Sequence record: OQ845957.1
Length of the DNA stretch: 64,000 nt
Reading direction: 5' to 3' (one strand)
Source: Escherichia phage pEC-M719-6WT.1
Below the pieces are notes generated by a model, which searched no databases, had not been told where the DNA came from, and was given only the letters and a program-made list of their open reading frames with translations. This document shows, one piece after another, positions 5,273 through 59,765 of this stretch. Numbering within the stretch: the stretch's first letter is position 1; the number at the start of each line of letters is the position of its first letter. Made by a program: the position numbers and the translations under genes.

Positions 5273-5284
5273 GGAACACAAATA

Positions 5285-5662: not shown

Positions 5663-5692
5663 TAACAATAAGACATTCTGGAGAATTTTATA

Positions 5693-6805: not shown

Positions 6806-6826
6806 TACTTGAAAGGAGGGTTATAA

Positions 6827-20516: not shown

Positions 20517-20562
20517 TTATTTTTAAGGGGGCTGTAAAGCCCTCTATTAAGAGGATTGATAA

Positions 20563-38793: not shown

Positions 38794-39834
38794 ATGGAAA
38801 AGTACACGTTAACAAAACTCCCAGATACTGTGACACATGTCTTTATTGACTCTGACAGCATCGCTTACAAGGGAGCCTGTGTCGTTGAGAAAGCAAAGTA
38901 CAAGTATGTGAATAAACTCACTGCTGAAGGGTCTGATGCCTTTGAAAGTGCTAAAGATGCTAATCAATGGCTATCTGACCAGAGAGTTCTGACAGAGGAA
39001 CTTGGTCTTGCATTCGATGAAGATGAATGGGAAAGACAATCTTGGAAAGAAGCAAAGAGTGAGAAAGAAGCTATTATGGCAACTCAACAAGTTCTTCAGG
39101 AATGGTTGAAAGTTGTCGGTAAAGAACGAACTTGGATGGGATACCTCACTGAGAAAGGTGTACATAAACACAAAGACATTAAAGGTCTTGAACACCAGTA
39201 TCAAGGTAACCGTAAAGAATCAGTAACCCCTACGCATTTAGTTGCTTGTCGTGAGTATCTTCTGTCACGACCTGAGTTTAAGCTTCTCAAAGGTGGCTTT
39301 GAAGCTGACTCCATTGTTATTGCAAAAGCTGAGAAGATGGGTAAGAAGGCTGCTCTTATGAGCATTGATAAAGACCTTCGCCAAGCGGAAGGAACTTACT
39401 GTATTGATATGACTTACGAGAAAGCCCCTCTTATTTTCATTGCAGATGGTAACGTAGGTAATATTTGGGATTGCCCTATCAAGTCTAAGCCGAAAGCTAA
39501 AAAGACTGTTGGTGTAGGCTTCAAATTCCTCTGCTATCAAGCTGTAGCAGGAGATAACGCAGATAACTACTTTGGCCTTAAGGGTGCAGGGAAAGTTGCT
39601 GTAATGAATGCTCTGGAAGGTAAAGAGACCTATAAAGAATGCCTTGATGCTATCTATGAACTTTACGCTAAGAAAGAGTCATACACTTATGAATCGTGGG
39701 ATGGTCAGGTGATTACAAGAACACCTCTTGAACTGATGCACCAGCACTTCTGGATTGCCTATCAAGAGCGTAACCCTAAAGATGATTTCACCTTTGCTAA
39801 ATATGGTTGGGAGCCTGTTATGAATGAAGATTAA
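38794..39834 (+). CDS. 5'-3' exonuclease / flap endonuclease (T7 gp6-like)
   Basis: VFIDSDSIAYKGA and SIDKDLRQ acidic motifs resembling FEN/gp6 metal-binding clusters; ORF track start at 38782 is TTG. Confidence 0.6.
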   Translation: MEKYTLTKLPDTVTHVFIDSDSIAYKGACVVEKAKYKYVNKLTAEGSDAFESAKDANQWLSDQRVLTEELGLAFDEDEWERQSWKEAKSEKEAIMATQQVLQEWLKVVGKERTWMGYLTEKGVHKHKDIKGLEHQYQGNRKESVTPTHLVACREYLLSRPEFKLLKGGFEADSIVIAKAEKMGKKAALMSIDKDLRQAEGTYCIDMTYEKAPLIFIADGNVGNIWDCPIKSKPKAKKTVGVGFKFLCYQAVAGDNADNYFGLKGAGKVAVMNALEGKETYKECLDAIYELYAKKESYTYESWDGQVITRTPLELMHQHFWIAYQERNPKDDFTFAKYGWEPVMNED

Positions 39835-40324
39835 AGGTTTTGGCAATTGCCCTGAATATGGACATTGGATTTCACTGTGCGGGGAGATTGACCCCGCTAA
39901 GTATTTTGGTTTCGTTTACTTAGTGTACTGCAAAAAGACTGGACAGTACTATTTGGGTAAGAAGCAGTTTAACAATGTCACCAAGAAGAAAGTAGCTGGA
40001 AAGACCAGACGTAAGATTGTGACAAAAGAGAGTGACTGGATGGTTTACCAGACCTCTTCTGAATACATTAAGAAAGATATTGAAACTTTCGGTGAAAAAG
40101 AGTTTGACTTCTATATTGTCCAAACTTATTATACGCGAGGTGGGTTGGTCTACGGAGAAGCTAACCTTCAGCATAAGTTTGACGTCATGACAAAAAGGAT
40201 TGACTCCAAGCTTCGACTCTTCTACAATGCAAACATTGCAGCAATCAAGTTTCTGACTAAAGAGACTTATGAAGATGCTGAGAAGAGAATCCATAAAATC
40301 ATGAAACTTAATGAGAGAGAATAA
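39824..40324 (+). CDS. GIY-YIG-like domain protein (possible nuclease)
   Basis: FVY-x10-YLG arrangement (FVYLVYCKKTGQYYLGKK). Confidence 0.4.
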   Translation: MKIKGFGNCPEYGHWISLCGEIDPAKYFGFVYLVYCKKTGQYYLGKKQFNNVTKKKVAGKTRRKIVTKESDWMVYQTSSEYIKKDIETFGEKEFDFYIVQTYYTRGGLVYGEANLQHKFDVMTKRIDSKLRLFYNANIAAIKFLTKETYEDAEKRIHKIMKLNERE

Positions 40325-40538: not shown

Positions 40539-41293
40539 TGTTTAATTCCAGAGAATCCGTTTTAACTTGGAATCAGCGTTGTGGTAATACCCCGTTGACT
40601 CCTTATACACCTGAGTATTGGTCTTCAATGCATAGTCAAGCACTTTGCATGTTAGAAGAGGCAAAAGAGCTTTTGAAAGCCATTGATGAAAAAGACCCTA
40701 TTGAGGCTCTTGATGCTCAGGCAGATTTACAGTATGTTCTTGATGGACTGATTTACCTTTCACAGCATGACCATGACGGAGCTATGAAAGCAGTCTGTCA
40801 GAATAACAACCTGAAGTATACCGATAACTACGAAGAAGCTTTGAAGCGTCTTGCAGATATCGAGAAGCGTACTGGTGATGAATGTCGTGTACGTGCTTCA
40901 ATGATTGACGGAAAAGAATGGTACGCCATTGTCCGTGAATCTGATAAGAAGATTATGAAGCAGTCTAATCTTCCTAAAGTACAGCTTGCAGAGTTCATCG
41001 CGGAACTTGAAAGCAAAGAATTGTTCGTGGTAACATCTGACACATGTGTTATCTGTAAAGGTCTTGTAGGAAGTTTGAAAGACCTTGGATTGAGTGACTT
41101 CACAGAAGTTCGACCAATCAGTTCGAAAGCAGACAAAGACTTCTGCCGAGAAAACGGATTATGGCTTGCAGATATTGTTTACTATGACGGTGAGAAGTTC
41201 CATGTGACCTCATACCCGAAACTGAACTATGATGCAAATAACCTGAAGAATTGGTTAAAAGGGGTTGGTTATAATGGATTCACAGAACATTAA
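40538..41293 (+). CDS. MazG-like nucleotide pyrophosphohydrolase domain protein with C-terminal thioredoxin-fold-like region
   Basis: N-terminal LEEAKELL...DAQADLQYVLDG acidic-helix pattern; C-terminal CVIC and YYDGEKF motifs. Confidence 0.4.
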   Translation: MFNSRESVLTWNQRCGNTPLTPYTPEYWSSMHSQALCMLEEAKELLKAIDEKDPIEALDAQADLQYVLDGLIYLSQHDHDGAMKAVCQNNNLKYTDNYEEALKRLADIEKRTGDECRVRASMIDGKEWYAIVRESDKKIMKQSNLPKVQLAEFIAELESKELFVVTSDTCVICKGLVGSLKDLGLSDFTEVRPISSKADKDFCRENGLWLADIVYYDGEKFHVTSYPKLNYDANNLKNWLKGVGYNGFTEH

Positions 41294-41597
41294 TACTGAA
41301 GAGGTGGCTCCAAAGAGCCATTTCTCAAACTATAATCTCTCTATGACAGTGTTTATGAATGATTCACTGCTAGAGAAATATGGTGAGACTCCAGATACTA
41401 TTCTGGACAATGAGCAAGTCTTACGGGCAGTTCTTTACAAATATGGGCTAGATATTGATAAAGACTACTCTTATGAGATTTGTCAGCACAGAAACACTTT
41501 TGGTAAAGTTGTTCTGGCTCCACTATTCATGGGTGTTGAGCGCGTCGATGAACAGTGGACTTACTTAAAACGTAACTTGGATAGATACCATGTCTAA
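41265..41597 (+). CDS. Hypothetical protein
   Basis: 110 aa ORF. Confidence 0.45.
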   Translation: MVIMDSQNINTEEVAPKSHFSNYNLSMTVFMNDSLLEKYGETPDTILDNEQVLRAVLYKYGLDIDKDYSYEICQHRNTFGKVVLAPLFMGVERVDEQWTYLKRNLDRYHV

Positions 41598-41925
41598 AAC
41601 TAAAAAGTTGACAGTAGAAGAAATCAAATCGGGTGTTGAACTCGGTGTCGATAAGTTTGGAGAATCAATTCATTTCGGTGACTTTGTAATGTACACTCAG
41701 GACTGTAAAGGCCGTAGTAACATTTGCTTTGGTAGAGTTGTCTGTAAAGTTCGTGGTAACTTTGCAATAGCCAGAATTGATGACAACATTTACGAGAAGC
41801 TTGATAGGGTTATGGGTGAGAACTACGGATACTGGTATTGCAATGCAATGTCAAAAGGTTCTATCACCAAAGTCTCTCAGAAGTTTTATGAACTCTGGGA
41901 AAATAAAAAGATTTTTAGCATTTAA
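41590..41925 (+). CDS. Hypothetical protein
   Basis: 111 aa ORF. Confidence 0.45.
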   Translation: MSKTKKLTVEEIKSGVELGVDKFGESIHFGDFVMYTQDCKGRSNICFGRVVCKVRGNFAIARIDDNIYEKLDRVMGENYGYWYCNAMSKGSITKVSQKFYELWENKKIFSI

Positions 41926-41932
41926 TCTCTAA

Positions 41933-41957
41933 GGGGTCTCTTCGGAGACCCTTTTTC
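41933..41957 (+). terminator. Rho-independent terminator
   Basis: GGGGTCTC-TTCG-GAGACCC followed by TTTTTC. Confidence 0.75.
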
Positions 41958-41977
41958 ACCTGTAGGACTCTAAAATA

Positions 41978-44212
41978 ATGATTAAGACCATTCGCAAATC
42001 TGACGGTACAATCGTACCGTTCGAACCAGAACGTTTAAACAAATGGGCTTCATGGGCTGACAAACGAGGAATCATTTGGTCAGAAGTCACTATGGAAGCT
42101 ATGAAGCATATCTATGAAGGTTGCTCTACCAAAGAGATGCACCAAGCTATGATTGACGTTTGTATTGATAAGCAGACTCAAGAATACTCTGATATGGCTG
42201 GTCGATTACTTCTTGGTATCATCTACAAAGAAGCTTTTGGGGGTTTCACAAAAGTTCCTCAACTGTTTAACTTCGTCATGAAGATGGAGCAGATGGGTTT
42301 GTGGGAACACATGGATTACACTGAACAAGAGATTGACTATTTACAAGGTCACATTGTTCACTCAAAAGATATCTCTTACGGTTATGCAGTACTGAAACAG
42401 TTCCGTGACAAATACGGTATCCGAGATATCAAGTCAGGTCGTCTGTTTGAGTCTCCACAATTTATGTTTATGGGTATGGCTATGAAAGCCTTTGAGAGAC
42501 AACCTAAGCACCGTAGACTGGAAGATGTTATCAAACTGTACACTTACCTGTCTGACCTGAAGATTAACGCTCCTACGCCTTATCTGAATGGTTTACGTGC
42601 TACTAAGTCAGGTTATGCGTCATGTTGCTTAATCAAAGCTAATGACACTGCTGAGTCTCTTGGCATTGCTACTAAGGTAGCTTATGATATGACCACGAAG
42701 CAAGCTGGTATTGGTATGCTGATGGAGACCCGTACAATTGGTGACGGTATTCGTCAAAACACCATTGAACACATGGGTAAGCTGCCTTATTACAAGCTTG
42801 TACGTGCTGCTGTAGAGGCCAATAAGCAGAAGAGTCGTGGTGGTTCAGCTAACAACTTCTACACTGCCCTAGACCCGCAGATTGAAGATTTACTACGTTT
42901 GAAGCATCCTACAACGGTTCTTTCGAAGCGTATTAATGAGATGGACTATTCATTTGGTGCAAATGACTATTTCTGGCAGTGTGTGCAGTACGATACAGAT
43001 TGGTTGCTGTTCTCTTACAAGGACGCTCCAAAGCTTTATGACATGTTCTACACAGCATCTGCTGATGAGTTTGCTATGGCAGTTGGTCACGCAGTTCATT
43101 CAGGTGTTAAGCATAAGCGTGTTAAGGCTCGTGAAGTTGCCAAGCTGTTCATCCAGCAACGTTATGCTACAGGTCGTGTGTATCCGTTCTTTACGAACAA
43201 TGCAAACACTCACACACCGTTTAAAGAACCTTTGAAAATGTCTAACCTGTGTATGGAGATTGTATTGCCAGTTCATGGATTCGAAGATGAACGTGACCTT
43301 TACAGTTACACAGCACCTAAAGAAGATGGTGAAGTTGCTCTTTGCTTCTTGGCTAGTCTGGTAGCAGGGAGAATCACAGAAGATGAATACGCTGACGTTG
43401 CTTATTATGCTCTTGCAATGGTTGACTCCGTTATTGACCTTATGGACTATCCGTATCCGTCAATGCGTAACCACGTTCAGAAACGCCGTTCTGTTGGGAT
43501 TGGCCTTACGAATGTGGCTCACTACCTTGCGAAGAACTACGTGAACTATTCTTCAAGAGCAGGTAAAACGAGACTGCATGAACTTGCAGAGATGCACTCT
43601 TACTATCTGCATGAGGCATCATTAAGACTTGCAAAAGAACGTGGTGTACCTGAGTATATGCAGTTCACCAAGTATCCTGAAGGTTGGGTTCCTCCGAAGA
43701 CAGCTAACAGGAAGATTGATACAAAACACGATGCAAAACTTCGTTATGATTGGGATGACTTAGCAGACCGTATTAAGGCAAACGGTGGTATCAGAAACTC
43801 TGTGCTTGAGGCTTACATGCCTAACGAGAGTTCTTCACTGGCAACTAATACAACAAACGGTTTGTACCCAATTCGTGACTTCATCTTAACCAAGAAGTCA
43901 GCAACTGGTAACGTACTGTTTATCGTTCCAGACTACGAAGAGTTGAAGTATATCTATGAAATTGCTTGGGATATTGACACCTTTGATATGATTGATTGCT
44001 ATGCAATTGTTCAAAAATTCACTGGTCAAGCTATCTCTTCAGATTTCTATGTTGACTATTCAAAATCAAAAAAGGTATCATTAGAGCAAGCTTTGAAGTA
44101 CATGATTTATGCTAACTCAGTTGGGATGAAAACTATGTACTACCTTAACAGTCGTATTGGTGTTGGTAAGTCAGCACTTCAAGATGCTTACTGTGAAGGT
44201 TGTGGCGTTTAA
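41978..44212 (+). CDS. nrdA: Ribonucleotide reductase class Ia alpha subunit
   Basis: 744 aa; N-terminal ATP-cone-like region, C-terminal CxxC tail (CEGCGV), typical NrdA length. Confidence 0.85.
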   Translation: MIKTIRKSDGTIVPFEPERLNKWASWADKRGIIWSEVTMEAMKHIYEGCSTKEMHQAMIDVCIDKQTQEYSDMAGRLLLGIIYKEAFGGFTKVPQLFNFVMKMEQMGLWEHMDYTEQEIDYLQGHIVHSKDISYGYAVLKQFRDKYGIRDIKSGRLFESPQFMFMGMAMKAFERQPKHRRLEDVIKLYTYLSDLKINAPTPYLNGLRATKSGYASCCLIKANDTAESLGIATKVAYDMTTKQAGIGMLMETRTIGDGIRQNTIEHMGKLPYYKLVRAAVEANKQKSRGGSANNFYTALDPQIEDLLRLKHPTTVLSKRINEMDYSFGANDYFWQCVQYDTDWLLFSYKDAPKLYDMFYTASADEFAMAVGHAVHSGVKHKRVKAREVAKLFIQQRYATGRVYPFFTNNANTHTPFKEPLKMSNLCMEIVLPVHGFEDERDLYSYTAPKEDGEVALCFLASLVAGRITEDEYADVAYYALAMVDSVIDLMDYPYPSMRNHVQKRRSVGIGLTNVAHYLAKNYVNYSSRAGKTRLHELAEMHSYYLHEASLRLAKERGVPEYMQFTKYPEGWVPPKTANRKIDTKHDAKLRYDWDDLADRIKANGGIRNSVLEAYMPNESSSLATNTTNGLYPIRDFILTKKSATGNVLFIVPDYEELKYIYEIAWDIDTFDMIDCYAIVQKFTGQAISSDFYVDYSKSKKVSLEQALKYMIYANSVGMKTMYYLNSRIGVGKSALQDAYCEGCGV

Positions 44213-44230
44213 CTAAACAGGGGGCTGTAA

Positions 44231-44250
44231 AGCCCCTTTTGGAGAAACCA
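44231..44250 (+). terminator. Putative terminator/attenuator after nrdA
   Basis: GGGGCT-GTAA-AGCCCC-TTTT. Confidence 0.55.
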
Positions 44251-44525
44251 TGTTAGAACTCATTCAAGATGCAAGGAGCAGAGAACCAAACTGTGCTTTG
44301 TATCTGTATTATATTCCAAGGGAGTCTCTATATTATATCGCAGACTATCACCTGAAAGTTAAAATGCCAGATGGTTCTTGGAAAGAGCATCTCCGTTACA
44401 TTGATTGCTTTAATCCAAGCAACACTTATGCAAGGTCTCTTGACATGTTTAAAGTTGACCGTTGGCAAGTTTTAACAGCGTCAGAAGCCAGAGAATTTTA
44501 TGAAACAGGAAACCTACCATTATGA
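44250..44525 (+). CDS. Hypothetical protein
   Basis: 91 aa ORF between nrdA and nrdB. Confidence 0.45.
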   Translation: MLELIQDARSREPNCALYLYYIPRESLYYIADYHLKVKMPDGSWKEHLRYIDCFNPSNTYARSLDMFKVDRWQVLTASEAREFYETGNLPL

Positions 44526-45595
44526 TTAACCAACATCCAATCTTTTTAGGCGGTGAGCGAAAAACTTTTGACTCACTCAACAAACACTATCCAAAAATCT
44601 TTGAACTGTACAAACAGCAGAAAGCACAAGACTGGTCTGAAGATGAGTTCCCATTTGAGCAGTCACGATTAGATTTTGAAAGTGTTCCAGAATCAATGTC
44701 TGGTGTAATGCTTGAGATTCTTAAGTGGCAGTGGGAAGCTGATACACAGGTTGCTAAGAGTTTGGCATTTGCTTTTGCACCATTCATCTCTGATGATATC
44801 TACGCAACGGCAATTATGAAGCAATCTGAAATTGAGAACCTTCATGCCTTAACTTATTCAGAGATTGTTCGTCAGTGTATTAAGAATCCTGAAACAATCC
44901 TTGATGAGATTAACCAGAATGCTGCTGTACAAGACCGTCTGAAGACTGTGAACAGAGCACTGGAAGAACTACTTGACGAAGGTATCAACTATCGTCTAAG
45001 TTATGTTCGTGATTCACTGCTTGATAAAGACCCTTTACACTTCCACAAAGTGATTTTGAAAGGTCTCTTTGCAGTAACAGCCTTGGAAGGTGTATCCTTT
45101 ATGGCATCCTTTGCATGTACCTTTGCACTTGATGCACAAGATAAGTTCCAAGGTATTGCTCAGGCAGTACAGAAAATTATGCTTGATGAAATCCTTCACA
45201 CGAAGATTGACATTGAAGCACTGAAAGAGACTTTGAAAGATGAAGAATGGCAAGAAGCTTTCCGTCAGGTTCTTCCAGAAATCAAAGTAATTCTTGATGA
45301 AGTAGTTGAAAGTGAAGAGAAATGGTCTTATTATATTTTCTCTGAAGGTCGTGCCGTAGTTGGTTTGAATACAAAACTTCTGCATGAGTGGGTTTACTAT
45401 AATGCTGCACCATTGTATGATATGTTTGGTATTCCAAGAGACTTCGTAGCTCCTAAAGAACCACCTTTGAAATACATGATTAAGAAGATGGAAATTGACA
45501 AAGAGCAGAATGCTAACCAAGAGCAACAAAACGGTGCGTACTTGTTGAATACCGTTGTAGATGATTTAAACTCAGGATATTTAGAGGTTCCTTAA
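44522..45595 (+). CDS. nrdB: Ribonucleotide reductase class Ia beta subunit
   Basis: 357 aa; ferritin-like di-iron pattern (E...EILH), position directly after nrdA. Confidence 0.85.
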   Translation: MINQHPIFLGGERKTFDSLNKHYPKIFELYKQQKAQDWSEDEFPFEQSRLDFESVPESMSGVMLEILKWQWEADTQVAKSLAFAFAPFISDDIYATAIMKQSEIENLHALTYSEIVRQCIKNPETILDEINQNAAVQDRLKTVNRALEELLDEGINYRLSYVRDSLLDKDPLHFHKVILKGLFAVTALEGVSFMASFACTFALDAQDKFQGIAQAVQKIMLDEILHTKIDIEALKETLKDEEWQEAFRQVLPEIKVILDEVVESEEKWSYYIFSEGRAVVGLNTKLLHEWVYYNAAPLYDMFGIPRDFVAPKEPPLKYMIKKMEIDKEQNANQEQQNGAYLLNTVVDDLNSGYLEVP

Positions 45596-45837
45596 TGACT
45601 TACGTAATTTACTCCAAAACTGGTTGCCCTCAGTGCGAAACTGCAAAGAACTTTGCGAAGGCTCGTGGTATTGACCACGTTGTAAGAATGTTGGGGCAGG
45701 ATTATGAACTGTCAGACCTGATGGATATTGCACAGATGCCAGTTCGTCAGATGCCATTCATCATGAAGACTGACGACACTGTTCTGACTCCGGTTGGAAC
45801 ACTACAAAACTTTATGGCAGAGGTGAACAATACTTAA
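45595..45837 (+). CDS. nrdH: Glutaredoxin/NrdH-like redoxin
   Basis: 80 aa; CPQC active-site motif at residues 11-14. Confidence 0.7.
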   Translation: MTYVIYSKTGCPQCETAKNFAKARGIDHVVRMLGQDYELSDLMDIAQMPVRQMPFIMKTDDTVLTPVGTLQNFMAEVNNT

Positions 45838-46041
45838 GCGTTTGTGGGAAGGTTTCACAGTTGATGCACCGATGATTGTACTAGGTTTCTTCTTTGTGAA
45901 CCTGTTTATTGATATCAAACAAGGTGCTTTGTTTGGTGCTATGTTAGTATGGGTAATCTTTGAGATTCTAGAAATCCATCTTGACATTAGCGGAAAACTT
46001 AAAAAGTTTGTTGAGAAGATTTTCAAAAAGAATTAATATAA

Positions 46042-46064
46042 GGGTCTCTTCGGAGACCTTTTTC
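46042..46064 (+). terminator. Rho-independent terminator (identical stem to 41933 copy)
   Basis: GGTCTC-TTCG-GAGACC-TTTTTC. Confidence 0.7.
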
Positions 46065-46082
46065 GTATATAAAGGAGCACAA

Positions 46083-48224
46083 ATGGTCAAAGTACAAATT
46101 ATTAAAAAGAATGGCTCACTTGAAGAACCAGATATTAAGAAAGTCCTAGCAGCAGTTACAAAATCAGCTAACCGAGTTGGCTATAAAGAACTCCCGTTAG
46201 AAGTTGTTCATGCTCTTGAGTCAGCTTTTATGCGGATTCTTGTAAAGGCTTCTAACCAGAATGCTTTGCTGATTTCTGTAGATGATATTCACAGCATTGT
46301 TGAAGGGACTTTAGCAGAAGTTAATCACGAGATTTATGAATCTTATTCAACCTATCGTAACTACCGTAAAGAGGTTGCACAGAATTGGGATGAACTCTAT
46401 CAGAAGACTAAAGACACCCTCTTCTTAGGTGACCGTGAGAACGCTAACTTTGACAGCAGTTTAATCTCTACAAAGGGTTCTATCATTCGTGGATATCTGA
46501 CTAAAGAAATCTTCAAGCAGTATCACTTGACACCAGAAGAACTCGAAGCTATTGAAGCAGGTTTCATCTACATTCATGACCTGAGAGATTTGGTATTTGG
46601 TGGTATTAACTGCTGCCTGTTTGACATTGGTAAAGTCCTGAAAGGTGGCTTTGAAATGTCTGGTATTGAATACTGTGAACCAAAGTCTGTTCTGTCAGCT
46701 TTACAGGTTATTGGTGATGTTGTATTGTCAGCAACTGCACAGCAATTTGGTGGATTTACTTTAGCAGAGATTGATAAGGTGCTTGTACCGTATGCTAAGA
46801 AGTCTCTACGCTATCATGCTGAGAAAGCAGCATCTTACGGTATCCCTAAAGAACATTACCACAATTATGTCATGGAGCAGCTACAGATTGAATTAACTCA
46901 AGGTTTTCAGTCACTTGAGATGAAACTGAATACTGTACCTTGCAGCCGTGGTGACTTTGCATTCACAACTTTAACATTTGGTTTACTTGACTCAGACATG
47001 TCTAATGAAGACAACCGACTACAATACATGATTGCAAGCACTCTCCTAGATGTTCGTATGAATGGACAAGGTAAGAGCAAGAAGCCTGTTGTATTTCCTA
47101 AACTGGTTTATATCTATGACCAGAAGAGACATGATGAAAATATCTGTCAAGGACACCTGTACAGTAAAGCTATTGAGTGTTGCTCTAAAGCAATGTATCC
47201 AGACTTCTTAAGCGTATCTGGTCATGGTGCTGTAGCAGAAGCTTTTGAGCGTTCTGGCAAGGTAATTTCACCGATGGGTTGCAGAGCGTTTTTATCACCA
47301 TATCTTAACGAAGATGGTGAAGAATTTTATGTAGGTCGTGCAAACATTGGTGCAGTATCTTTGAACTTGCCAATGATTTACCAGTATGCTAGAGAGAATG
47401 GTTTAGACTTCTGGAGAGAGATTGACAAATACCTTGAAATGATTCGCAGTTTTCATAAGAAACGTTATGAGATGATTGCTAACATGCCAGCAAGTTCAAA
47501 CCCTCTAGCATTCACACAAGGTGGATTGTACAAAGGGAATAAGAAGCCAACTGATAAGATTGGTTGGGATACTGTGAAATCCTTCACAGCATCTTTCGGT
47601 GTAACTGCACTTGATGAGCTTTCTGTACTGGCTGGAGAAGGTAGACTGCATGAGTCTCAGAAAGTGATTGCACAGCAAGTTCTAGACTACCTGAATGACC
47701 GTCTGGCATACTTTAAAGAGCAAGATGGCTTCTTGTATGCCCTTTATGGTACACCTGCTGAGAGCCTTTGTGGGACGCAATTGAAGCAGTTCCGTAATAT
47801 GTTTGGTGTTGTGAAAGATGTGTCTGATAAAGAATACTTCACTAACAGCTTCCATATGAACGTTGCAGCAGATATTACTCCGTATCAGAAGCAAGACTTG
47901 GAAGAATCTCTGTTCCATAGCTGTAATGGTGGTCACATCCAGTACATTCGTCTGGCTAACCCAGAGAACCATAAAGCTATCAGGGCTTGTGTCTCAAGAG
48001 GCATGGGTAAAGGATTCTATCAAGGGGTTAACTTTGACTTAGCAATCTGTGAGAATTGTGGTCATCGCCCTAATTCAGATGTTGAAGAGTGTCCTAAGTG
48101 TCATTCACATGATATCTCAGTTATCAACCGTGTCTGTGGTTACCTTGGATGGACTAAGATTAAAGGAACCTCAAGAATGAATGATGCAAAAATTGCTGAG
48201 ATTCGTGACAGAAAATCTATGTAA
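46083..48224 (+). CDS. nrdD: Anaerobic ribonucleoside-triphosphate reductase
   Basis: C-terminal CENCGH...CPKCH zinc site and glycine-radical motif RVCGYLG; ORF-track start at 45981 is TTG, ATG at 46083 follows AAGGAG RBS. Confidence 0.85.
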   Translation: MVKVQIIKKNGSLEEPDIKKVLAAVTKSANRVGYKELPLEVVHALESAFMRILVKASNQNALLISVDDIHSIVEGTLAEVNHEIYESYSTYRNYRKEVAQNWDELYQKTKDTLFLGDRENANFDSSLISTKGSIIRGYLTKEIFKQYHLTPEELEAIEAGFIYIHDLRDLVFGGINCCLFDIGKVLKGGFEMSGIEYCEPKSVLSALQVIGDVVLSATAQQFGGFTLAEIDKVLVPYAKKSLRYHAEKAASYGIPKEHYHNYVMEQLQIELTQGFQSLEMKLNTVPCSRGDFAFTTLTFGLLDSDMSNEDNRLQYMIASTLLDVRMNGQGKSKKPVVFPKLVYIYDQKRHDENICQGHLYSKAIECCSKAMYPDFLSVSGHGAVAEAFERSGKVISPMGCRAFLSPYLNEDGEEFYVGRANIGAVSLNLPMIYQYARENGLDFWREIDKYLEMIRSFHKKRYEMIANMPASSNPLAFTQGGLYKGNKKPTDKIGWDTVKSFTASFGVTALDELSVLAGEGRLHESQKVIAQQVLDYLNDRLAYFKEQDGFLYALYGTPAESLCGTQLKQFRNMFGVVKDVSDKEYFTNSFHMNVAADITPYQKQDLEESLFHSCNGGHIQYIRLANPENHKAIRACVSRGMGKGFYQGVNFDLAICENCGHRPNSDVEECPKCHSHDISVINRVCGYLGWTKIKGTSRMNDAKIAEIRDRKSM

Positions 48225-48235
48225 GTAGTTGACAA

Positions 48236-48273
48236 GGTAGTGTAGGTCTTGATAGGCTTGCACTACCTTTTTT
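48236..48273 (+). terminator. Rho-independent terminator after nrdD
   Basis: GGTAGTG...CACTACC stem followed by TTTTTT. Confidence 0.6.
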
Positions 48274-48379
48274 ATTGGATGTTAGATATGGCAGAGAACA
48301 TCATTGGACTATTCATAGTTTCAATCTTACTAGGGTTCTTTTTAGGACTCCTTTATTGTGAATTAAGAGGAAAGTTAAA

Positions 48380-48778
48380 ATGTTTAAAATCTCAAAAGCG
48401 TTAATGGAAGTGCTGAAAGAATGCACGTTAGATGATGGAAAGTGTGAGAAAGAGCATCGTCGTGGTTCAAGCTTTTATCTCACCAGTGAACTCACAATCA
48501 CTCAAGAGCTAATTGACTCAATCAAAGAGGATGAAAACTTAGTAGTGCCTGATTGGTTACTTGATAAAATCATTACCATAACAGGTACTTGGGACGGTGA
48601 TTGGGGAACTGAGATTTTTGATATCTCATTCTACAGCTACATCCAGAAGATGAATCCTAAGTATGTGGCCTTGATGACTGCTGCGCAAGATAGTAAAATC
48701 TTGCAAGACTTCATTTACAAACACTGTCCAGAATATGTTATATCTTACGAAAAGATTGAAGTGGAGGTAGTAGAATGA
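48380..48778 (+). CDS. Hypothetical protein
   Basis: 132 aa ORF between nrdD and nrdG. Confidence 0.5.
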   Translation: MFKISKALMEVLKECTLDDGKCEKEHRRGSSFYLTSELTITQELIDSIKEDENLVVPDWLLDKIITITGTWDGDWGTEIFDISFYSYIQKMNPKYVALMTAAQDSKILQDFIYKHCPEYVISYEKIEVEVVE

Positions 48779-49260
48779 ATTTTATGGAAATTCGAGGATT
48801 CGATACAGCTAATGGTGAAGGTGCTCGTGTGAGTATCTTTGTAGCTGGTTGCAAGCATCACTGTGAAGGTTGTTTCAACAAAGAATCTTGGAAATTCAAT
48901 GCAGGTAAAGAGTTTACTGATTTTGATATGGCTGATATCTTAGCTATGTTGAAAGATGATGGTATAGAAGGTTTGTCAGTGTTAGGTGGGGAACCTTTAG
49001 AAGAACGAAACATTGACACTGTAGCGTATATCTGCAAGACTGTTAAAGAGCATTATCCAGAGAAATCTATCTGGCTTTGGACAGGTTTCCAGCTTCACCA
49101 AAAAATTCACCATGAAGTAATGGAATATGTTGACGTGGTGATTGATGGTAAGTATGATGCTTCTAAACCAACGAACAAACCGTATCGTGGTTCTGATAAC
49201 CAAAACCTTTGGAGAAAAGAATATGGCTGGCAAGGCGATTGTCAATGGCGTACAGAGTAG
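48775..49260 (+). CDS. nrdG: Anaerobic RNR activating enzyme (radical SAM)
   Basis: 161 aa; radical-SAM-like cysteine cluster CKHHCEGC. Confidence 0.8.
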   Translation: MNFMEIRGFDTANGEGARVSIFVAGCKHHCEGCFNKESWKFNAGKEFTDFDMADILAMLKDDGIEGLSVLGGEPLEERNIDTVAYICKTVKEHYPEKSIWLWTGFQLHQKIHHEVMEYVDVVIDGKYDASKPTNKPYRGSDNQNLWRKEYGWQGDCQWRTE

Positions 49261-49543
49261 TGGTGGATTCAAACGTGGCGAGATTGTTATGGTAACCTGT
49301 AACATGTCTCTGTTTGGTAGCTACAAAGTCAATCCAGAAACTCTCGAAGAGTGGAGAAACTACACAAAAAGCCTATTTGATTCCACTGGAATGATAGCCT
49401 TGAAGCAGATTGAGGACGCTGGAGTATTTAAAGTAAAATACAAAGCACATTTCTCAAACTTTTACGCGACAAACTTGAGAGTTGATGATAAAGTTGTCGC
49501 AGTTACCGAAGAAGAACTGAATAAGTTCTGTATTAAACTTTAA
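49223..49543 (+). CDS. Hypothetical protein
   Basis: ATG at 49223 preceded by GGAGAAAAG; ORF track extends further upstream. Confidence 0.45.
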   Translation: MAGKAIVNGVQSSGGFKRGEIVMVTCNMSLFGSYKVNPETLEEWRNYTKSLFDSTGMIALKQIEDAGVFKVKYKAHFSNFYATNLRVDDKVVAVTEEELNKFCIKL

Positions 49544-49828: not shown

Positions 49829-50140
49829 ATGAGCAAGATTTATAACACTCGTAAAATTCAGATTTTAGCACTGTGCCAGTTTATGTATGACAAACACAAT
49901 GCACACTATTGTGGTACAGGCTTTCAATCTTTTAGTGGTGAGTACACACCATTTAAAAAGGCTGTTGAGATGTACAACACTCAGGATGAATCTGATAAAG
50001 AACTGCATCAACTGAAGCTGACTTATGACAAAAAGCACAAGAAGATTGTATGCACAAACAACCTTGTCAAGCCATCTGAATCACTCAAGATGGATGTAAC
50101 CCAAGAAGGGTTTGTAAGAGTCTTGAAAAAGCTTCAGTAA
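49829..50140 (+). CDS. Hypothetical protein
   Basis: 103 aa ORF. Confidence 0.45.
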   Translation: MSKIYNTRKIQILALCQFMYDKHNAHYCGTGFQSFSGEYTPFKKAVEMYNTQDESDKELHQLKLTYDKKHKKIVCTNNLVKPSESLKMDVTQEGFVRVLKKLQ

Positions 50141-50152
50141 TTCGTTATGATT

Positions 50153-50180
50153 AGGGAACTGTAAAAGGTTCCCTTTTTAT
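50153..50180 (+). terminator. Rho-independent terminator
   Basis: GGGAAC-TGTAAAA-GGTTCCC followed by TTTTTATTTT. Confidence 0.7.
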
Positions 50181-51929: not shown

Positions 51930-53756
51930 ATGACTAAATCAATCTACGCAGTTCCAGCAGGTCTTAATGCAGATGCCTACAAAGCAGGTCACGTCTACCA
52001 GTATCCAAGTGCTACACAGTATTTGATGCTGAACCTTACACCTCGTGGTGATAAGTGGTTTAACAGCCCCTTAGAAGTTGACGGTGTAGTTGCTTTCGGT
52101 ATTCAACGTTTCGTTAAAGATTACTTAGTAGACCATTGGAACGAAACTTTCTTCGAACGTGATAAGAAAGAGGCTGTTGATGAAATCTTGGAAATCATGA
52201 ATGGTGTTCTTGGTGCAGATGCTATCAAGCGTCATCATTGGGAAGAACTTCACGACTTGGGTTATCTGCCAGTTGCAGTGTACTCTGTTGAAGAAGGTAC
52301 AATCGTTCCTATGCGTGTTCCAATGATTATCTTCAAAAATACCGTTGAAGGTTTCCATTGGGTAGCTGGTTATCTGGAAGATGCTTTCTCTGCTGAAATC
52401 TGGAAAGCTTGTACCATTGCCACTATTGCACTGCATTACAAACGTATCTGTAAGTCTTGGGCTGAGAAGACCTGTGACAATGACTTCCATCTTCCTTGGC
52501 AGTGTCATGACTTTGCAATGCGTGGTATGTCTGGCTTCACAGATGATGCTTTCAATGCTGTAGGTCACCTGACCAGCTTTAAAGGCACTGATAGCTTCCC
52601 TGCTGTGTATACTGCTAAACGTGCATATGGTCAGTTCATGACTGTAAGTGATATTGGTAACTCTGTTCCAGCAACTGAACATTCCGTTATGTGTGCAAAC
52701 ATTTCATGGAATATGAAAGACCTGACAGAAGATAACATTCACTCACAGTACATCATGCAGTCTGATAGCTTGCTGGATGCTAAACGCTGGCGTGGAGAGG
52801 TTCAAACCTTTAAGCACCTGCTGGTAGATGTTTACCCAACTGGTATTGCAAGTGTTGTGTCCGATACTTACAACTTCTGGCGTACAGTTACAGAGATTCT
52901 TTCAGAACTCCGTGAAGTAATCTTGAATCGTGATGGTAAGCTGGTAATCCGTCCAGATTCTGGTGACCCTGTACACATTGTTACTGGTTATCGTGCAATT
53001 GAATGGGAAAATGCTAAGAGCATGTATTACAAACACATGGCAACCATTTCTCCTGACAATACTTATCTGCTTGATGCAATCTTGAATTGTAACATGACAG
53101 ATATGGGTTACGGTTTCTCTGCTTGGCTAATCTCTGAAGGTTATGAGTTAGTTGTTGATGCAGAAGACTTTAACGTTGCCGATACAGTTAACCTGAAAGA
53201 GACTTACAAGACTGGTAAAGTTGTTGTTAAACGTATGCTGACAGCAGAAATTGATGGTGCTATCAAGACTCTGTACAACATCTTTGGAGGCACTGTAAAC
53301 TCTAAAGGTTACAAAGTTCTTGATGAACACATTGGCTTAATCTACGGTGATTCTATCACTCTGGAACGTGCTGAAGAGATTCTTAGCCGTCTTGCTGAAA
53401 AGGGCTTTGCAAGTTCTAACGTTGTCTTTGGTGTTGGTTCATACACTTACCAGTACCTGACTCGTGATACCTTTGCATTCGCTGTTAAAGCAACTCTTGC
53501 ACAGATGGATGGTGAAGAAATCATGCTGGCAAAAGACCCTAAAACTGACAGTGGTCTGAAGAAGTCTGCTTTTGGTGGTGTAGTCCCTATGTGGGATGGT
53601 GATAAGCTGGAAGCTGTAGATGGTTTTGGTTTTGCAGAGTTTGAAAGTGTACTGGATAACCCTCAGTGTGCTCTGAAGCTGGTATTCTGTGACTCTCAGC
53701 CATATGGCTACGTTAACCTTTGTGATGTACGAAATGTTATTGACAGAGAGCTTTAA
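51930..53756 (+). CDS. Nicotinamide phosphoribosyltransferase (NAMPT/NadV) family protein
   Basis: 608 aa; N-terminal DAYKAGHVYQYP resembling NAMPT DSYKVTHYKQYP signature; adjacent to Prs-like gene. Confidence 0.8.
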   Translation: MTKSIYAVPAGLNADAYKAGHVYQYPSATQYLMLNLTPRGDKWFNSPLEVDGVVAFGIQRFVKDYLVDHWNETFFERDKKEAVDEILEIMNGVLGADAIKRHHWEELHDLGYLPVAVYSVEEGTIVPMRVPMIIFKNTVEGFHWVAGYLEDAFSAEIWKACTIATIALHYKRICKSWAEKTCDNDFHLPWQCHDFAMRGMSGFTDDAFNAVGHLTSFKGTDSFPAVYTAKRAYGQFMTVSDIGNSVPATEHSVMCANISWNMKDLTEDNIHSQYIMQSDSLLDAKRWRGEVQTFKHLLVDVYPTGIASVVSDTYNFWRTVTEILSELREVILNRDGKLVIRPDSGDPVHIVTGYRAIEWENAKSMYYKHMATISPDNTYLLDAILNCNMTDMGYGFSAWLISEGYELVVDAEDFNVADTVNLKETYKTGKVVVKRMLTAEIDGAIKTLYNIFGGTVNSKGYKVLDEHIGLIYGDSITLERAEEILSRLAEKGFASSNVVFGVGSYTYQYLTRDTFAFAVKATLAQMDGEEIMLAKDPKTDSGLKKSAFGGVVPMWDGDKLEAVDGFGFAEFESVLDNPQCALKLVFCDSQPYGYVNLCDVRNVIDREL

Positions 53757-53770
53757 ATAAGTATTATAAG

Positions 53771-53793
53771 AGGCTCCTACTGGAGCCTTTTTA
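53771..53793 (+). terminator. Rho-independent terminator
   Basis: GGCTCC-TACT-GGAGCC-TTTTT. Confidence 0.7.
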
Positions 53794-54145: not shown

Positions 54146-54306
54146 AAGTTGCTCTTTCACTAGGTTGCATTGTTGCTATTGCAGTGGTACTTTGTAAGTA
54201 CTTTGCAGAGACCGAACCTTGTGAAGAGTGTGAAGGAACTGGTGTAGTAGGTATGGGGCATTGTTGCCCTCACTGTAATGGTTCGGGAAAGAAATTTAAA
54301 AAATAA
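54127..54306 (+). CDS. Small membrane-anchored zinc-finger protein (CxxCxGxG x2), not in ORF track
   Basis: 59 aa: hydrophobic helix then CEECEGTG...CPHCNGSG DnaJ-like cysteine repeats. Confidence 0.4.
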   Translation: MQGYWLEVALSLGCIVAIAVVLCKYFAETEPCEECEGTGVVGMGHCCPHCNGSGKKFKK

Positions 54307-54370
54307 TTTGACAGGGCTATACAGTTTTCTGCATAGCCTCTTAACCAAAACAACATAGAGGAATATAGTT

Positions 54371-56746: not shown

Positions 56747-56758
56747 ACAAAAGCTTGA

Positions 56759-56778
56759 CGGGGGCTGAAAAGCCCCTT
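56759..56778 (+). terminator. Stem-loop after rIIA (weak T-tract)
   Basis: GGGGGCT-GAAA-AGCCCC. Confidence 0.4.
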
Positions 56779-56824
56779 AGGATACGAAACACAAACTTTT
56801 AAACAATAAAGAGAGAGATTTAAA

Positions 56825-57934
56825 ATGACTACTAAGACTAAAGCACAAATTGATGCAGAAATCTATGCACTGGTTCAGGAAGGTAAACTGACCAAAACCG
56901 CCATTGCAATGAAGTATAACACTTCTACTCGTTCCGTTGGTCGTGCTGTAGAACGTCACGAAGCAACACTGAAAGGTGCTAAGAAAGCAACTTCCAAGCC
57001 AGCTAAACAGACTCTGAAACAGATTGCAAAGTCTGCTAAGAAGACGGCTACTAAGCCAGTTGCCAAGGCTGTTAAAGAGGCAGTGAAGAAAGAGCCTGTT
57101 AACCAACTGCACGAAGCAATGCAGAATGGTAACCAGATTGAGTACATGATTACTGGTGATTCTGTTATCATGACTTTCGGTGCAGATTCTGAAATCGTAG
57201 AGTCTACCCATCCGAACTACAAAGAAATCGTGATGGCTGTTGTAGGTGGTGAGTACAAGAAAGCTTTCGAACTGATGAACATTCGTAAGTCTATCGAGAA
57301 CTTCACTCAGGGTGCAATCACTATCAAAGGTGATAACCTGTACTACGGTGCTGTTCAAATGCGCTCCACTCTGGTAGACCGTATTCTGGACATGATGAAA
57401 GTTGGTGATGATGGCTTTAAACGTCTGGTAGCATTCTTCGAAAAACTGATGGAAAACCCATCCAAAGATTCTGTAGAACAACTTTGGGGTTTTGTGTCTC
57501 ACCTCGATGTTGAGATTGATGAAGAAGGTTATATCATCGGTTGGAAGAAAGTTACAACTCGTGGTGGTAAGCTGTTTGACTCCCGTACCTGCAAAGTTCC
57601 TAATGATTTGGGTAACGTTGTAGAGATGCCACGCTGGATGGTTGATAATGACCGTACAGTAACTTGCTCTCAAGGTCTGCACGTTGGTGCTTGGGGTTAT
57701 GTACGTAGCTTCTCTGGTGATACTATCCTGAAAGTTCGTGTACATCCACGAGACGTTGTATCTGTACCAACTGACTATAAAGATATGAAAATGCGAGCTT
57801 CCCGTTATGAAGTTGCAGCAATCGTGAATGGTCAGCGTCAGGTTGTCAAAGAGTGGGATGGCAAATCTGAAGCACTGCATATTGTTGTAGGTACTGCTGG
57901 TGAACTGATTTCTCAGCGTAAACGTGAAATCTGA
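56825..57934 (+). CDS. rIIB: rIIB-like protein
   Basis: 369 aa directly downstream of rIIA-like gene; strongly biased codon usage. Confidence 0.5.
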   Translation: MTTKTKAQIDAEIYALVQEGKLTKTAIAMKYNTSTRSVGRAVERHEATLKGAKKATSKPAKQTLKQIAKSAKKTATKPVAKAVKEAVKKEPVNQLHEAMQNGNQIEYMITGDSVIMTFGADSEIVESTHPNYKEIVMAVVGGEYKKAFELMNIRKSIENFTQGAITIKGDNLYYGAVQMRSTLVDRILDMMKVGDDGFKRLVAFFEKLMENPSKDSVEQLWGFVSHLDVEIDEEGYIIGWKKVTTRGGKLFDSRTCKVPNDLGNVVEMPRWMVDNDRTVTCSQGLHVGAWGYVRSFSGDTILKVRVHPRDVVSVPTDYKDMKMRASRYEVAAIVNGQRQVVKEWDGKSEALHIVVGTAGELISQRKREI

Positions 57935-57949
57935 TAAGTAAATTCTTAA

Positions 57950-57973
57950 AGGGCTGCTTCGGCAGCCTTTTTT
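57950..57973 (+). terminator. Rho-independent terminator
   Basis: GGGCTGC-TTCG-GCAGCC-TTTTTT. Confidence 0.75.
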
Positions 57974-58034
57974 ATTTGTGTTTTGTGCAGAGTAGTGTAT
58001 AATTACCCCTATGTTTAATAAAATAGGAGAACCA

Positions 58035-58583
58035 ATGAAGAAATTCATTTTAGGTTTGTGCTTACTTTTTACAGCACAAGTAGCTGTGGCAACTGACTGC
58101 CCTGAGTTAACTATCGGCCAGAAAGTAAACATGCTTAAAGCTTACAACTATGGCGAAAACAAAATGGGAAAAGGTTGGGGCATTACACTTGCAGCTATAG
58201 CCTTACAAGAGTCAGAGTTAGGTCTTAACCTAGAAAATAGAAAGACACATGATTATGGCATCTTCCAGAATCACTTGAAGACTGTTGTAAAGCGTAACAA
58301 AGTTAACCCTAATGTAGCTAGGAAGAAGCTTATCAGAGACTTTCAATATGCTGCACAGGAGACTCACAAAGAACTTGAATTCTGGACTAAGGTACATGGT
58401 ACACCAAAAGGGAAGAAGTCTCTTAAAAAGGTGTTAGCCTCTTACAATGCAGGATATAGCTACAGCATCCCAAAAGCTAGACAGTACTCTAAAGATGTGT
58501 ATAATAATATGAAAGTGCTTGCTCAATGTGAGTTTGCAACAAACATTCAAAAGGTAAAACATGAGCGTATTAAGTCAATCTGA
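58035..58583 (+). CDS. Lytic transglycosylase (SLT domain) with N-terminal signal peptide
   Basis: Signal peptide MKKFILGLCLLFTAQVAVA; SLT motifs AIALQES and DYGIFQ; AGGAGA RBS; TATAAT-like -10 upstream. Confidence 0.55.
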   Translation: MKKFILGLCLLFTAQVAVATDCPELTIGQKVNMLKAYNYGENKMGKGWGITLAAIALQESELGLNLENRKTHDYGIFQNHLKTVVKRNKVNPNVARKKLIRDFQYAAQETHKELEFWTKVHGTPKGKKSLKKVLASYNAGYSYSIPKARQYSKDVYNNMKVLAQCEFATNIQKVKHERIKSI

Positions 58584-59256: not shown

Positions 59257-59266
59257 GAGAGAAATC

Positions 59267-59731
59267 ATGCAAAACATTATCACTGTAGCAATTGATGCAA
59301 CTGGTAACAAATCACAAGTTGTACGTAACATCATCAAGGAAAACTTTGATGGTAAAATCTTTCGTGCAGTAAACGTTAAAGCTGACGGAGAAATCCGTGA
59401 ATATCGTGCAATGCTTAACGTTACTAAGCATGTCAAAGGTGTCGGTTCTACTACAGCACATAAAGAAAACCTGATGACCATCTATGACATGGGTATGGCT
59501 TCAGAGTTGGGTGCTAAAGGAATTGTACAGTCCGGTGCTCCGTACCGCTCTTTCAATCTGGAAACTGCTCTTATGCTTTCCTTTACAAGTGGTTCACAAA
59601 CTACCACATATCTCTTTACTGATGCTGCAACGGTATCTGCCATTAAGGATAGCACTATCAAGGCTGGTGTAGCTGCTGCTGCAAAAGCTTCAACGATGGC
59701 TGCAAATGTCCTTGCTAAAGTCCTCGGTTAA
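59267..59731 (+). CDS. Hypothetical protein
   Basis: ATG at 59267 after AAGAGAGA RBS; ORF-track start at 59243 is TTG. Confidence 0.5.
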   Translation: MQNIITVAIDATGNKSQVVRNIIKENFDGKIFRAVNVKADGEIREYRAMLNVTKHVKGVGSTTAHKENLMTIYDMGMASELGAKGIVQSGAPYRSFNLETALMLSFTSGSQTTTYLFTDAATVSAIKDSTIKAGVAAAAKASTMAANVLAKVLG

Positions 59732-59742
59732 GGTTACTATAT

Positions 59743-59765
59743 AGGCTCCTTCGGGAGCCTTTTTC
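59743..59765 (+). terminator. Rho-independent terminator
   Basis: GGCTCC-TTCG-GGAGCC-TTTTT. Confidence 0.75.

Follow-up and report, generated by a model that had tools for sequence, protein, structure and literature searches.

Predicted terminator hairpins with an identical core flank the aerobic ribonucleotide reductase genes of a SUSP2-like Escherichia phage

Two hairpins with an identical core flank the genes of the aerobic (class I) ribonucleotide reductase (RNR) in Escherichia phage pEC-M719-6WT.1 (sequence record OQ845957.1), a SUSP2-like phage of the Felix O1 type (Ounavirinae, Suspvirus). Hairpin 1 is located just before nrdA and hairpin 2 just before nrdD, with nrdA, nrdB and a glutaredoxin gene (grx) between them. 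The analysis covers a stretch of 64,000 nucleotides (the window), and coordinates are those of the window unless another genome is named. Hairpins of the CUUCGG type are said to occur in the intercistronic regions of phage T4, according to the original work of 1988. The hairpins of the window resemble them in that a short GC-rich stem carries a UUCG loop with a closing C-G pair, and in their intergenic position in a virulent coliphage. This is a likeness of structural class, and no homology is implied. The cUUCGg hairpins have exceptional stability (PMC4371310).

In phage Felix O1, the genome paper tabulates the rho-independent terminators t111 (73004..73025, gagcctcttcggaggctctttt) and t116 (77111..77131, ggtctcttcggagaccttttt) (Whichard et al. 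2010, PMC3185647, Table 2). How transcription passes the many terminators of this genome was given there as unknown (PMC3185647). The record of phage Moogle has a 'terminator' feature at the site of hairpin 1. The pair of terminators is already known in this sense, being tabulated for Felix O1, with the first member also annotated in Moogle. A second system for comparison is provided by the PeSL of T4-like phages, in which sigma70-like promoters are joined to stem-loop terminators and which are proposed recombination sites (Arbiol et al. 2010, PMC2839356; Comeau et al. 2014, PMC4122927). In one subclass of the PeSL, the stem-loop is located just 3′ of the -10 hexamer (PMC2839356; PMC4122927).

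We consider it likely, with good confidence, that both hairpins of the window are Rho-independent terminators or attenuators with a cUUCGg tetraloop, placed in a rightward array of early/middle genes and orthologous to t111 and t116, and that their identity comes from the small repertoire of such hairpins.

Structure and conservation of the two hairpins

The 16-mer GGTCTCTTCGGAGACC followed by a run of five Ts (T5) is found at two sites only in the window, 41935-41950 and 46043-46058, both on the + strand. No further copies of GGTCTCTTCGGAGACC are found in the 64 kb at up to 2 mismatches. The longest exact stretch common to both hairpins is 17 nt (GGGTCTCTTCGGAGACC). Dinucleotide shuffles contain a mean of 0.05 matches to GGTCTCTTCGGAGACC, and two copies are present in none of the 100 shuffles. 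An earlier sequence-only reading of this DNA had reported identical 16-bp cores at 41933-41957 and 46042-46064, flanking the aerobic RNR genes, and the present sequence comparison agrees with it.

Hairpin 1 has a Watson-Crick stem of 7 bp (41934-41940/41945-41951), a TTCG loop (41941-41944) and T5 (41952-41956). Hairpin 2 has a Watson-Crick stem of 6 bp (46043-46048/46053-46058), the same loop (46049-46052) and T5 (46059-46063). The predicted RNA folding energies are -15.6 and -12.3 kcal/mol, respectively, with z-scores of -2.6 and -3.3 against shuffles. The UUCG loop is closed by a C-G pair in both hairpins (...C TTCG G...), giving the cUUCGg loop, which is also found in the window hairpins at 57952 and 59744. 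Both hairpins are on the coding strand of an array with all of its genes on the + strand. They are separated from the preceding stop codon by 8 nt (hairpin 1) and 6 nt (hairpin 2), and from the next ATG by 26 nt and 24 nt, a space that contains a Shine-Dalgarno (SD) sequence alone. With a T-run on the coding strand, termination is the probable function.

A census of the window for perfect GC-rich stems with a T-run after them recovers both hairpins. It also finds hairpins of the GGCTCC...GGAGCC family at 23576, 53772 and 59744, one of the GGGGCT...AGCCCC family at 44221, and a GGGCT...AGCCC hairpin at 20529; the recurrence of the first two families had been noticed in the sequence-only reading. 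The hairpins at 44221-44236 and 53772-53787 also score as terminator-like on the - strand, and no - strand genes converge there. A search of the whole window (1-64000) against Rfam gives no match at gathering thresholds. SUSP2-like genomes have a tRNA cluster (82.8-88.3 kb in SUSP2), which falls outside the window.

As judged from position and sequence, hairpins 1 and 2 are the orthologues of Felix O1 t111 and t116. We retrieved 42 loci from IMG/VR by means of NrdB, and compared about 30 loci of the E. coli/Salmonella/Citrobacter type. In these aligned loci, and in the Felix O1 table, the hairpins occupy equal intergenic slots and have the same or a compensated sequence. The t116 terminator is identical in sequence to hairpin 2 (ggtctcttcggagaccttttt) and is located in the slot between the small open reading frame (ORF) that follows the glutaredoxin gene and nrdD. 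The t111 terminator is located before nrdA, and its loop, tail and downstream sequence are as in hairpin 1. Its stem, GAGCCTC/GAGGCTC, is two compensated pair changes away from that of the window, and t111 and t116 are thus not identical to each other. The identity of the two hairpins is limited to Suspvirus/Mooglevirus-like lineages, including the window.

Hairpin 2 is invariant in all of the approximately 30 loci, and its flanks differ. For hairpin 1, the allele GGGTCTC/GAGACCC is found in the SUSP2 lineage, the Moogle lineage and two metagenomic lineages, and the allele GAGCCTC/GAGGCTC in Felix O1-type phages. In the Erwinia outgroup, the syntenic sites have a GGACTC/GAGTCC stem. Site 1 therefore has three stem variants (GGGTCTC, GAGCCTC and GGACTC), each with a matching 3′ arm. 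In the alignment of the hairpin sequences, 98.9% of the cells are paired. One covarying stem position is occupied by U-A, A-U or C-G, and another by G-C or A-U. The observed covariation score is reached in none of 500 shuffles. Because pairing is kept, with compensatory changes, and no shuffle reaches the covariation score, the aligned sequences indicate that the fold is under selection. As far as the sequence goes, the earlier suggestion that these hairpins are terminators is borne out by the stem, loop and T5, the position on the coding strand, the compensatory changes, and the listing of t111 and t116.

Predicted promoters joined to hairpin 2 and to similar hairpins

A sigma70-like promoter is predicted immediately upstream of hairpin 2 (Table 1). 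Its hexamers overlap the 3′ end of the small ORF at 45842..46036, and its -10 ends 3 nt before the stem. The usual distance from the -10 to the start site (+1) is 7 nt. With this distance, +1 is predicted near 46046 (the 7th nt after the -10), inside the 5′ arm of the hairpin. In the predicted fold of RNA from 46046, a stem of 3 bp is left, with -4.7 kcal/mol overall. The promoter match at hairpin 2 is 8-10/12 in every lineage, with differences in the spacer sequence, and the -10 ends 3-5 nt before GGTCTC across the lineages. At hairpin 1, no sigma70-like promoter is found upstream of the hairpin or between it and nrdA in any lineage, the best matches being 5-6/12. The sequence TAAAAT at 41971-41976 was considered as the -10 of an nrdA promoter, and was rejected as too close to the ATG.

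Composite elements of this type are also found at the hairpins at 50154 and 53772, and, in a weaker form, at 59744. Their hexamers are conserved across lineages and their spacers are variable. Where the -35 of a composite element is within coding sequence, it shows no synonymous change. A total of 33 strong T-tailed hairpins were pooled from three divergent sources, the window, Erwinia phage vEam_W_25 and Pectobacterium phage Arno18. Seven of the 33 have a promoter match of at least 9/12 with a -10 that ends 2-4 nt before the stem, and each of the other 5-nt offset bins from -40 to +60 has 0-1 promoter, with 0.19 expected per bin. Given the 7-nt distance between -10 and +1, the start falls at stem nucleotide 3-5 in these phased elements.

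We propose the following mechanism. In RNA arriving from upstream, the GC-rich stem of 6-7 bp with its very stable UUCG loop would form before the tract of five Us and release part of the polymerases. Hairpin 1 would be a stand-alone leaky attenuator, and nrdA-nrdB-grx would be expressed by read-through, since no promoter is found between hairpin 1 and nrdA or just upstream. Hairpin 2 would be the stem-loop half of a composite promoter-terminator. Incoming transcripts would carry the whole hairpin and stop, and RNA started locally would lose part of the 5′ arm, form no terminator and read into nrdD. Such composites may be compact insulators. The terminators would come from a very limited repertoire of near-optimal hairpins with a GC stem and a UUCG loop, and copies in one genome would tend to be alike by convergence or by short-patch conversion between near-identical hairpins. 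As a separate observation, in RNA that lacks an intact hairpin 2, a weak helix (about -2.8 kcal/mol) is predicted between the CCUUU that opens the U-tract and AAAGG of the nrdD SD region (46057-46077).

In reverse transcription PCR (RT-PCR) of Felix O1, ORFs 111, 112, 114 and 115 reach their peak at 25 min, and nrdD (ORF 117) reaches it at 60 min. This timing is compatible with a transcriptional boundary at hairpin 2 and with read-through of hairpin 1. As ORFs 111 and 112, on either side of hairpin 1, peak together, nrdA apparently depends on read-through. The earlier suggestion that the identical hairpins mark a transcription unit is thus supported at one end only. It fits hairpin 2, with its predicted fused promoter and the split in RT-PCR timing, but not hairpin 1, with no promoter and with ORFs 111 and 112 peaking at the same time.

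Several observations weigh against this proposal. A terminator scan with greedy stem extension calls neither hairpin on the + strand, because extension of the stem through G-T and A-T pairs enters the T-run. The searchable literature contains no mapping of RNA 3′ ends or 5′ ends for Felix O1-like phages, and the RT-PCR timing is end-point and semi-quantitative. The U-tract has five Us only, and efficiency may be low. Strong terminators have 7-9 Us, and the shorter T5 suggests partial efficiency. In Felix O1-type phages, 5 nt separate the -10 from GGTCTC, and a local transcript could keep a stem of 5-6 bp. This longer retained stem weakens the step of escape by truncation of the hairpin, which might then serve as a cap at the 5′ end instead.

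It is also conceivable, and in our view unlikely, that the hairpins act mainly on RNA stability, by blocking 3′ exonucleases on processed transcripts, with hairpin 2 as a 5′-terminal cap that protects the nrdD message from decay that depends on the 5′ end. Stem-loops at the 5′ terminus stabilise mRNA in E. coli. The cUUCGg hairpins are very stable, and each of them occupies a short gap between genes, with an SD sequence and a start codon immediately after it. The -10 ends 2-5 nt ahead of the stem, and transcripts beginning with the first bases of the stem would have the hairpin at their 5′ terminus. However, in every member the stem is followed at once by a T-run, and only on the coding strand; such a run is needed for termination and not for stability. 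Roles in stability and in termination are not exclusive.

The shared core and the ancestry of the gene block

In IMG/VR, at least 120 stretches contain the 16-mer GGTCTCTTCGGAGACC. Among the matches listed, a T-tract follows it in 104 of the 123 occurrences, in dozens of unrelated flank contexts. By this distribution, GGTCTCTTCGGAGACC with its T-tract is a generic terminator that is repeatedly re-invented. Other identical pairs of terminators are t5 and t35 in Felix O1 and those at 61510(+) and 77791(-) in SUSP2. In vEam_W_25 (Kolesnikvirus; PP079183.1, 84.7 kb), GGACTCTTCGGAGTCC followed by a T-run is found at 12 sites on both strands, with one extra loop variant at 62821. The copies share the hairpin only (16-18 nt and the T-run), and their flanks are unrelated.

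The hairpins of vEam_W_25 are similar to those of the window in the 6-bp stem, the TTCG loop and the T5-6, and in being located at the syntenic sites, one preceding nrdA and the other behind the small ORFs that follow the glutaredoxin gene. The two RNR-flanking copies are identical to each other, as in the window. On the other hand, their stem is GGACTC/GAGTCC, with one compensated flip of U-A to A-U, and they are part of a set of 12 sites as compared to two in the window.

The identity of the two window hairpins exceeds chance against random sequence, but not against a small repertoire of GC-rich 6-bp stems with cUUCGg loops. Because the 16-mer is generic, identical pairs are common, the Erwinia phage has 12 sites and the Felix O1-type hairpins differ, identical cores would need no common origin. 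The identity within the Erwinia genome, together with the compensated difference between genera, suggests homogenisation within genomes. Its route may be conversion between near-identical hairpins or a lineage-specific optimum. For site 1, one outgroup (Erwinia) has a third stem and another (Arno18) is without the gene block, and conversion from hairpin 2 is indistinguishable from two transition-type compensatory changes via G-U intermediates. GGTCTC is the BsaI/Eco31I site, and an explanation by restriction avoidance was dropped, as these sites show no depletion in the window (9 and 11 observed versus 8.4 and 9.7 expected). In Arno18, two copies of GCCACCTTAACGGGTGGC at 11889 and 15535 have identical flanks (ttaacaag ... 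tttttcgt). About 36 nt downstream are near-identical, indicating a longer repeat, unlike the hairpin-only repeats elsewhere.

A broader interpretation can be offered only tentatively. The terminator hairpins of the Ounavirinae may constitute one evolving repeat family, homogenised in each genome, with about one fifth of its members fused at 2-4 nt to host-type promoters that would start inside the stem, and favoured as crossover points. It draws on the 12 Erwinia copies, the pairs in SUSP2-like phages and Felix O1, and the genus-specific stems at syntenic sites.

Ancestry was followed by sliding identity and nearest-relative painting. The window is a fine-grained mosaic on a SUSP2-like backbone, with patches (Table 1) whose nearest relatives are IMG/VR contig 3300045988_001525, Felix O1-type phages (within nrdD) and Moogle. 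The patch at 41272-41900, including the 111-aa ORF, resembles 3300045988_001525 and not SUSP2. There is a crossover within a conserved patch of about 50 bp that holds hairpin 1, with 3300045988_001525-like sequence upstream and SUSP2-like sequence downstream. The SUSP2-like tract starts at hairpin 1, crosses hairpin 2 and ends near 46600, in the middle of nrdD, at a Felix O1-like patch. Between 48 and 63 kb, three more donor switches are at or within about 40-70 nt of the hairpins at 53772, 57952 and 59744. One of these junctions is just downstream of the composite element at 53740..53792, and another is at most about 40 nt upstream of that at 59712..59764. The rIIA-like gene at 54371-56746 is 99% identical to that of 3300045988_001525 and 72% identical to that of SUSP2. 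Overall, about 4 of the roughly 21 donor switches are within 60 nt of 8 hairpins, as compared to about 1 expected, in a count that is post hoc. Mosaic junctions in phages favour gene boundaries, which confounds this enrichment. In pairwise comparisons, the strongest breakpoints are around the 91-aa ORF and within nrdA, and the two hairpins are minor peaks only; most of the signal in this profile comes from alignment gaps and from the variable 91-aa ORF.

The sequence-only reading had also raised the possibility that the hairpins are footprints of a recombinationally acquired module. In this scenario, which we regard as quite improbable, nrdA-nrdB-grx would have been acquired, or would be excisable, as a cassette between repeat copies, for which the PeSL provide a precedent (PMC2839356, PMC4122927). 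The crossover in the patch of hairpin 1 and the three donor switches at other hairpins are in its favour, and so is the Erwinia block, which likewise has a pair of identical hairpins, of a different sequence, on its two sides. Moreover, in the Ounavirinae the aerobic RNR block can occur without the anaerobic one, and vice versa. Erwinia phages (4833-9144 in one of them) have nrdA-nrdB-grx without nrdD/nrdG, Arno18 (78495-82324) has nrdD/nrdG without nrdA/nrdB/grx and a single hairpin before nrdD, and the E. coli/Salmonella types have both blocks. At subfamily depth, the sequences are too divergent for nucleotide-level placement of the block boundaries, in Arno18 because orf124 and orf125 are without clear homologues.

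The comparison of module boundaries in relatives, which the sequence-only reading had called for, is not consistent with this scenario. The RNR block is kept in 251 of the 251 records that cover the 6-kb query. A synthetic deletion junction, hairpin to hairpin, is covered by 0 of 257 matching records among 50,697 phage records searched; this search is blind to very divergent genomes, and Arno18, without nrdAB, was found by annotation only. As all close relatives keep the block, no deletion junction is found and the ancestry tract crosses hairpin 2, the RNR block is not supported as a module bounded by the two hairpins. What is left of the scenario are the crossover at the patch of hairpin 1, the three at other hairpin patches and the independent occurrence of the two RNR blocks. 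The largest breakpoints, moreover, are located elsewhere, the stems of the Felix O1-type phages differ between the two sites, and the copies share only 16-18 nt, with no longer repeat unit. The 12 sites throughout the Erwinia genome indicate that the flanking of the RNR genes is not special, and the enrichment of junctions at hairpins has the limits given above.

The window elements are similar to the PeSL in that hairpin 2 and the hairpins at 50154 and 53772 (more weakly that at 59744) each have a predicted sigma70-like promoter attached to the terminator stem-loop, with an SD sequence and a start codon after it, and in that mosaic junctions coincide with several hairpin patches. There are also clear differences. 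The copies in the window share a hairpin of 16-18 nt only, in contrast to the PeSL motif of about 100 bp. Hairpin 1 has no promoter, and the phage subfamily is different. The window elements are among conserved core metabolism genes, whereas the PeSL are in ORFan-rich hyperplastic regions. The window elements bound no indel between close relatives, and only single crossovers are found at hairpin patches. They are not members of the PeSL as defined.

Recognition of the exact sequence by a phage or host factor, for example an RNA-binding regulator or a nuclease, is very unlikely. It would be in line with the invariance of hairpin 2 across the E. coli/Salmonella/Citrobacter-type lineages despite diverging flanks, and with the presence of one 16-mer at 12 sites in the Erwinia phage. 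However, the 16-mer with its T-tail is also found in many unrelated phages from unrelated environments, site 1 tolerates three stems, no candidate factor was identified, and cUUCGg loops are described as binding no proteins (PMC4371310). Short palindromes do arise by chance, but a coincidence without function can be dismissed, since two matches are found in none of the 100 shuffles and the positions are conserved across genera with compensatory changes.

Gene neighbourhood and significance

The region has 95-96% identity to Salmonella phage PC79-13 and Escherichia phage SUSP2, and about 84% identity to some 250 Felix O1-like phages. Based on Pfam and the annotation of relatives, the order on the + strand is a MazG-like pyrophosphatase, two small ORFs, hairpin 1, nrdA, a third hairpin and the 91-aa ORF, followed by nrdB, glutaredoxin, a small ORF, hairpin 2 and nrdD. 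The SD sequence of nrdD is AAGGAG (46072-46077). The slot of the third hairpin is occupied in relatives by a different hairpin, GAGGGTC gtaaaa GACCCTC. The 91-aa ORF is the most variable gene of the block, with 32-72% identity among lineages that share about 97% in NrdB. Its homologue in the Erwinia phage, gp079 (42% identity), is in another slot, 3′ of the RNR genes. Further upstream, the 166-aa ORF at 39824-40324 is a SegE-like GIY-YIG homing endonuclease (Pfam PF19835, 2.5e-26), and its homologues in SUSP2 and the Erwinia phage have the RefSeq label 'NAD synthetase'. Pairwise ancestry breakpoints cluster at 39.7-40.0 kb, adjoining this ORF.

Table 1. Coordinates of the hairpins, predicted promoters, genes and mosaic patches in the window, and of related elements in other phages
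Feature	Coordinates	Strand	Remarks
Hairpin 1 region	41933-41957	+	Reads GGGGTCTCTTCGGAGACCCTTTTTC; predicted intrinsic terminator/attenuator, Felix O1 t111 orthologue
Hairpin 2 region	46042-46064	+	Reads GGGTCTCTTCGGAGACCTTTTTC; predicted intrinsic terminator, Felix O1 t116 orthologue
Sigma70-like promoter at hairpin 2 (predicted)	46011..46039	+	TTGAGA 46011-46016, 17-nt spacer, TAATAT 46034-46039; 9/12
Hairpin-2 promoter, Moogle			TTGAAA-17-TAATAT
Hairpin-2 promoter, lineage L030			TTGATA-17-TAAAAT
Hairpin-2 promoter, lineage L004			TTAAAA-16-TATAAT
Hairpin-2 promoter, Felix O1-type phages			TTGCGA-17-TAAAAT or TTCAAA-16-TAAAAT
Composite element	50123..50178	+	TTGAAA-17-TATGAT, gap 2 nt, hairpin GGGAAC tgtaaaag GTTCCC (50154) and T5; hexamers invariant across lineages
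Composite element	53740..53792	+	TTGACA-16-TATTAT, gap 4 nt, hairpin GGCTCC tact GGAGCC (53772) and T5
Weaker composite element, Felix O1 t5 orthologue	59712..59764	+	TTGCTA-17-TACTAT, gap 3 nt, cUUCGg hairpin GGCTCC ttcg GGAGCC (59744) and T5
cUUCGg terminator, Felix O1 t2 orthologue	57952..57973	+	GGCTGC ttcg GCAGCC and T6; no fused promoter; mosaic junction in patch
Composite elements, vEam_W_25 (PP079183.1)	30126, 71404	+
Composite element, vEam_W_25 (PP079183.1)	1743	-
Composite element, Arno18 (MK290738.1)	91439	+
GGACTCTTCGGAGTCC copies, vEam_W_25	30126, 56829, 61117, 62397, 66343, 71404, 74151, 75421	+
GGACTCTTCGGAGTCC copies, vEam_W_25	41738, 39805, 2268, 1743	-
111-aa ORF of unknown function	41590..41925	+	Ends 8 nt 5′ of hairpin 1; within the 41272-41900 patch
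nrdA, class I ribonucleotide reductase large subunit	41978..44212	+	Pfam Ribonuc_red_lgC 4.5e-90, lgN, ATP-cone
Third hairpin, nrdA/91-aa ORF gap	44221..44240	+	GGGGCT gtaa AGCCCC and T4; -15.6 kcal/mol
91-aa ORF of unknown function	44250..44525	+	No Pfam match
nrdB, class I ribonucleotide reductase small subunit	44522..45595	+	Pfam Ribonuc_red_sm 3e-34
Glutaredoxin/NrdH-like redoxin, 80 aa	45595..45837	+	Pfam Glutaredoxin 4.4e-07; glutaredoxin in SUSP2 annotation
Small ORF	45842..46036	+	64 aa from TTG start (68 aa in SUSP2 annotation); ends 6 nt 5′ of hairpin 2
nrdD, anaerobic class III ribonucleotide reductase	46083..48224	+	Pfam NRDD 1.4e-112; first gene past hairpin 2
Mosaic patches	41272-41900, 46620-47300, 48020-48720, 49120-49500, 54200-56800, 57900-59400

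The pair of hairpins as originally noticed matters little in itself, as it re-identifies two predicted terminators that are already tabulated. The phased promoter-hairpin elements and the reuse of hairpins within genomes are modestly interesting leads. If the hairpins do form a repeat family, it would be a PeSL-like system outside the T4-like phages, and its stop-and-restart elements would answer the question posed in the Felix O1 paper. The composite elements would extend the PeSL idea to a second group of phages, one used in typing and biocontrol of Salmonella and E. coli, and they would be compact natural terminator-promoter parts. They predict insulated units for nrdD, the gene at 50193 and the gene at 53810. 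For the puzzle of transcription through the many terminators of these phages, raised in 2010, the phased elements offer an explanation that can be tested.

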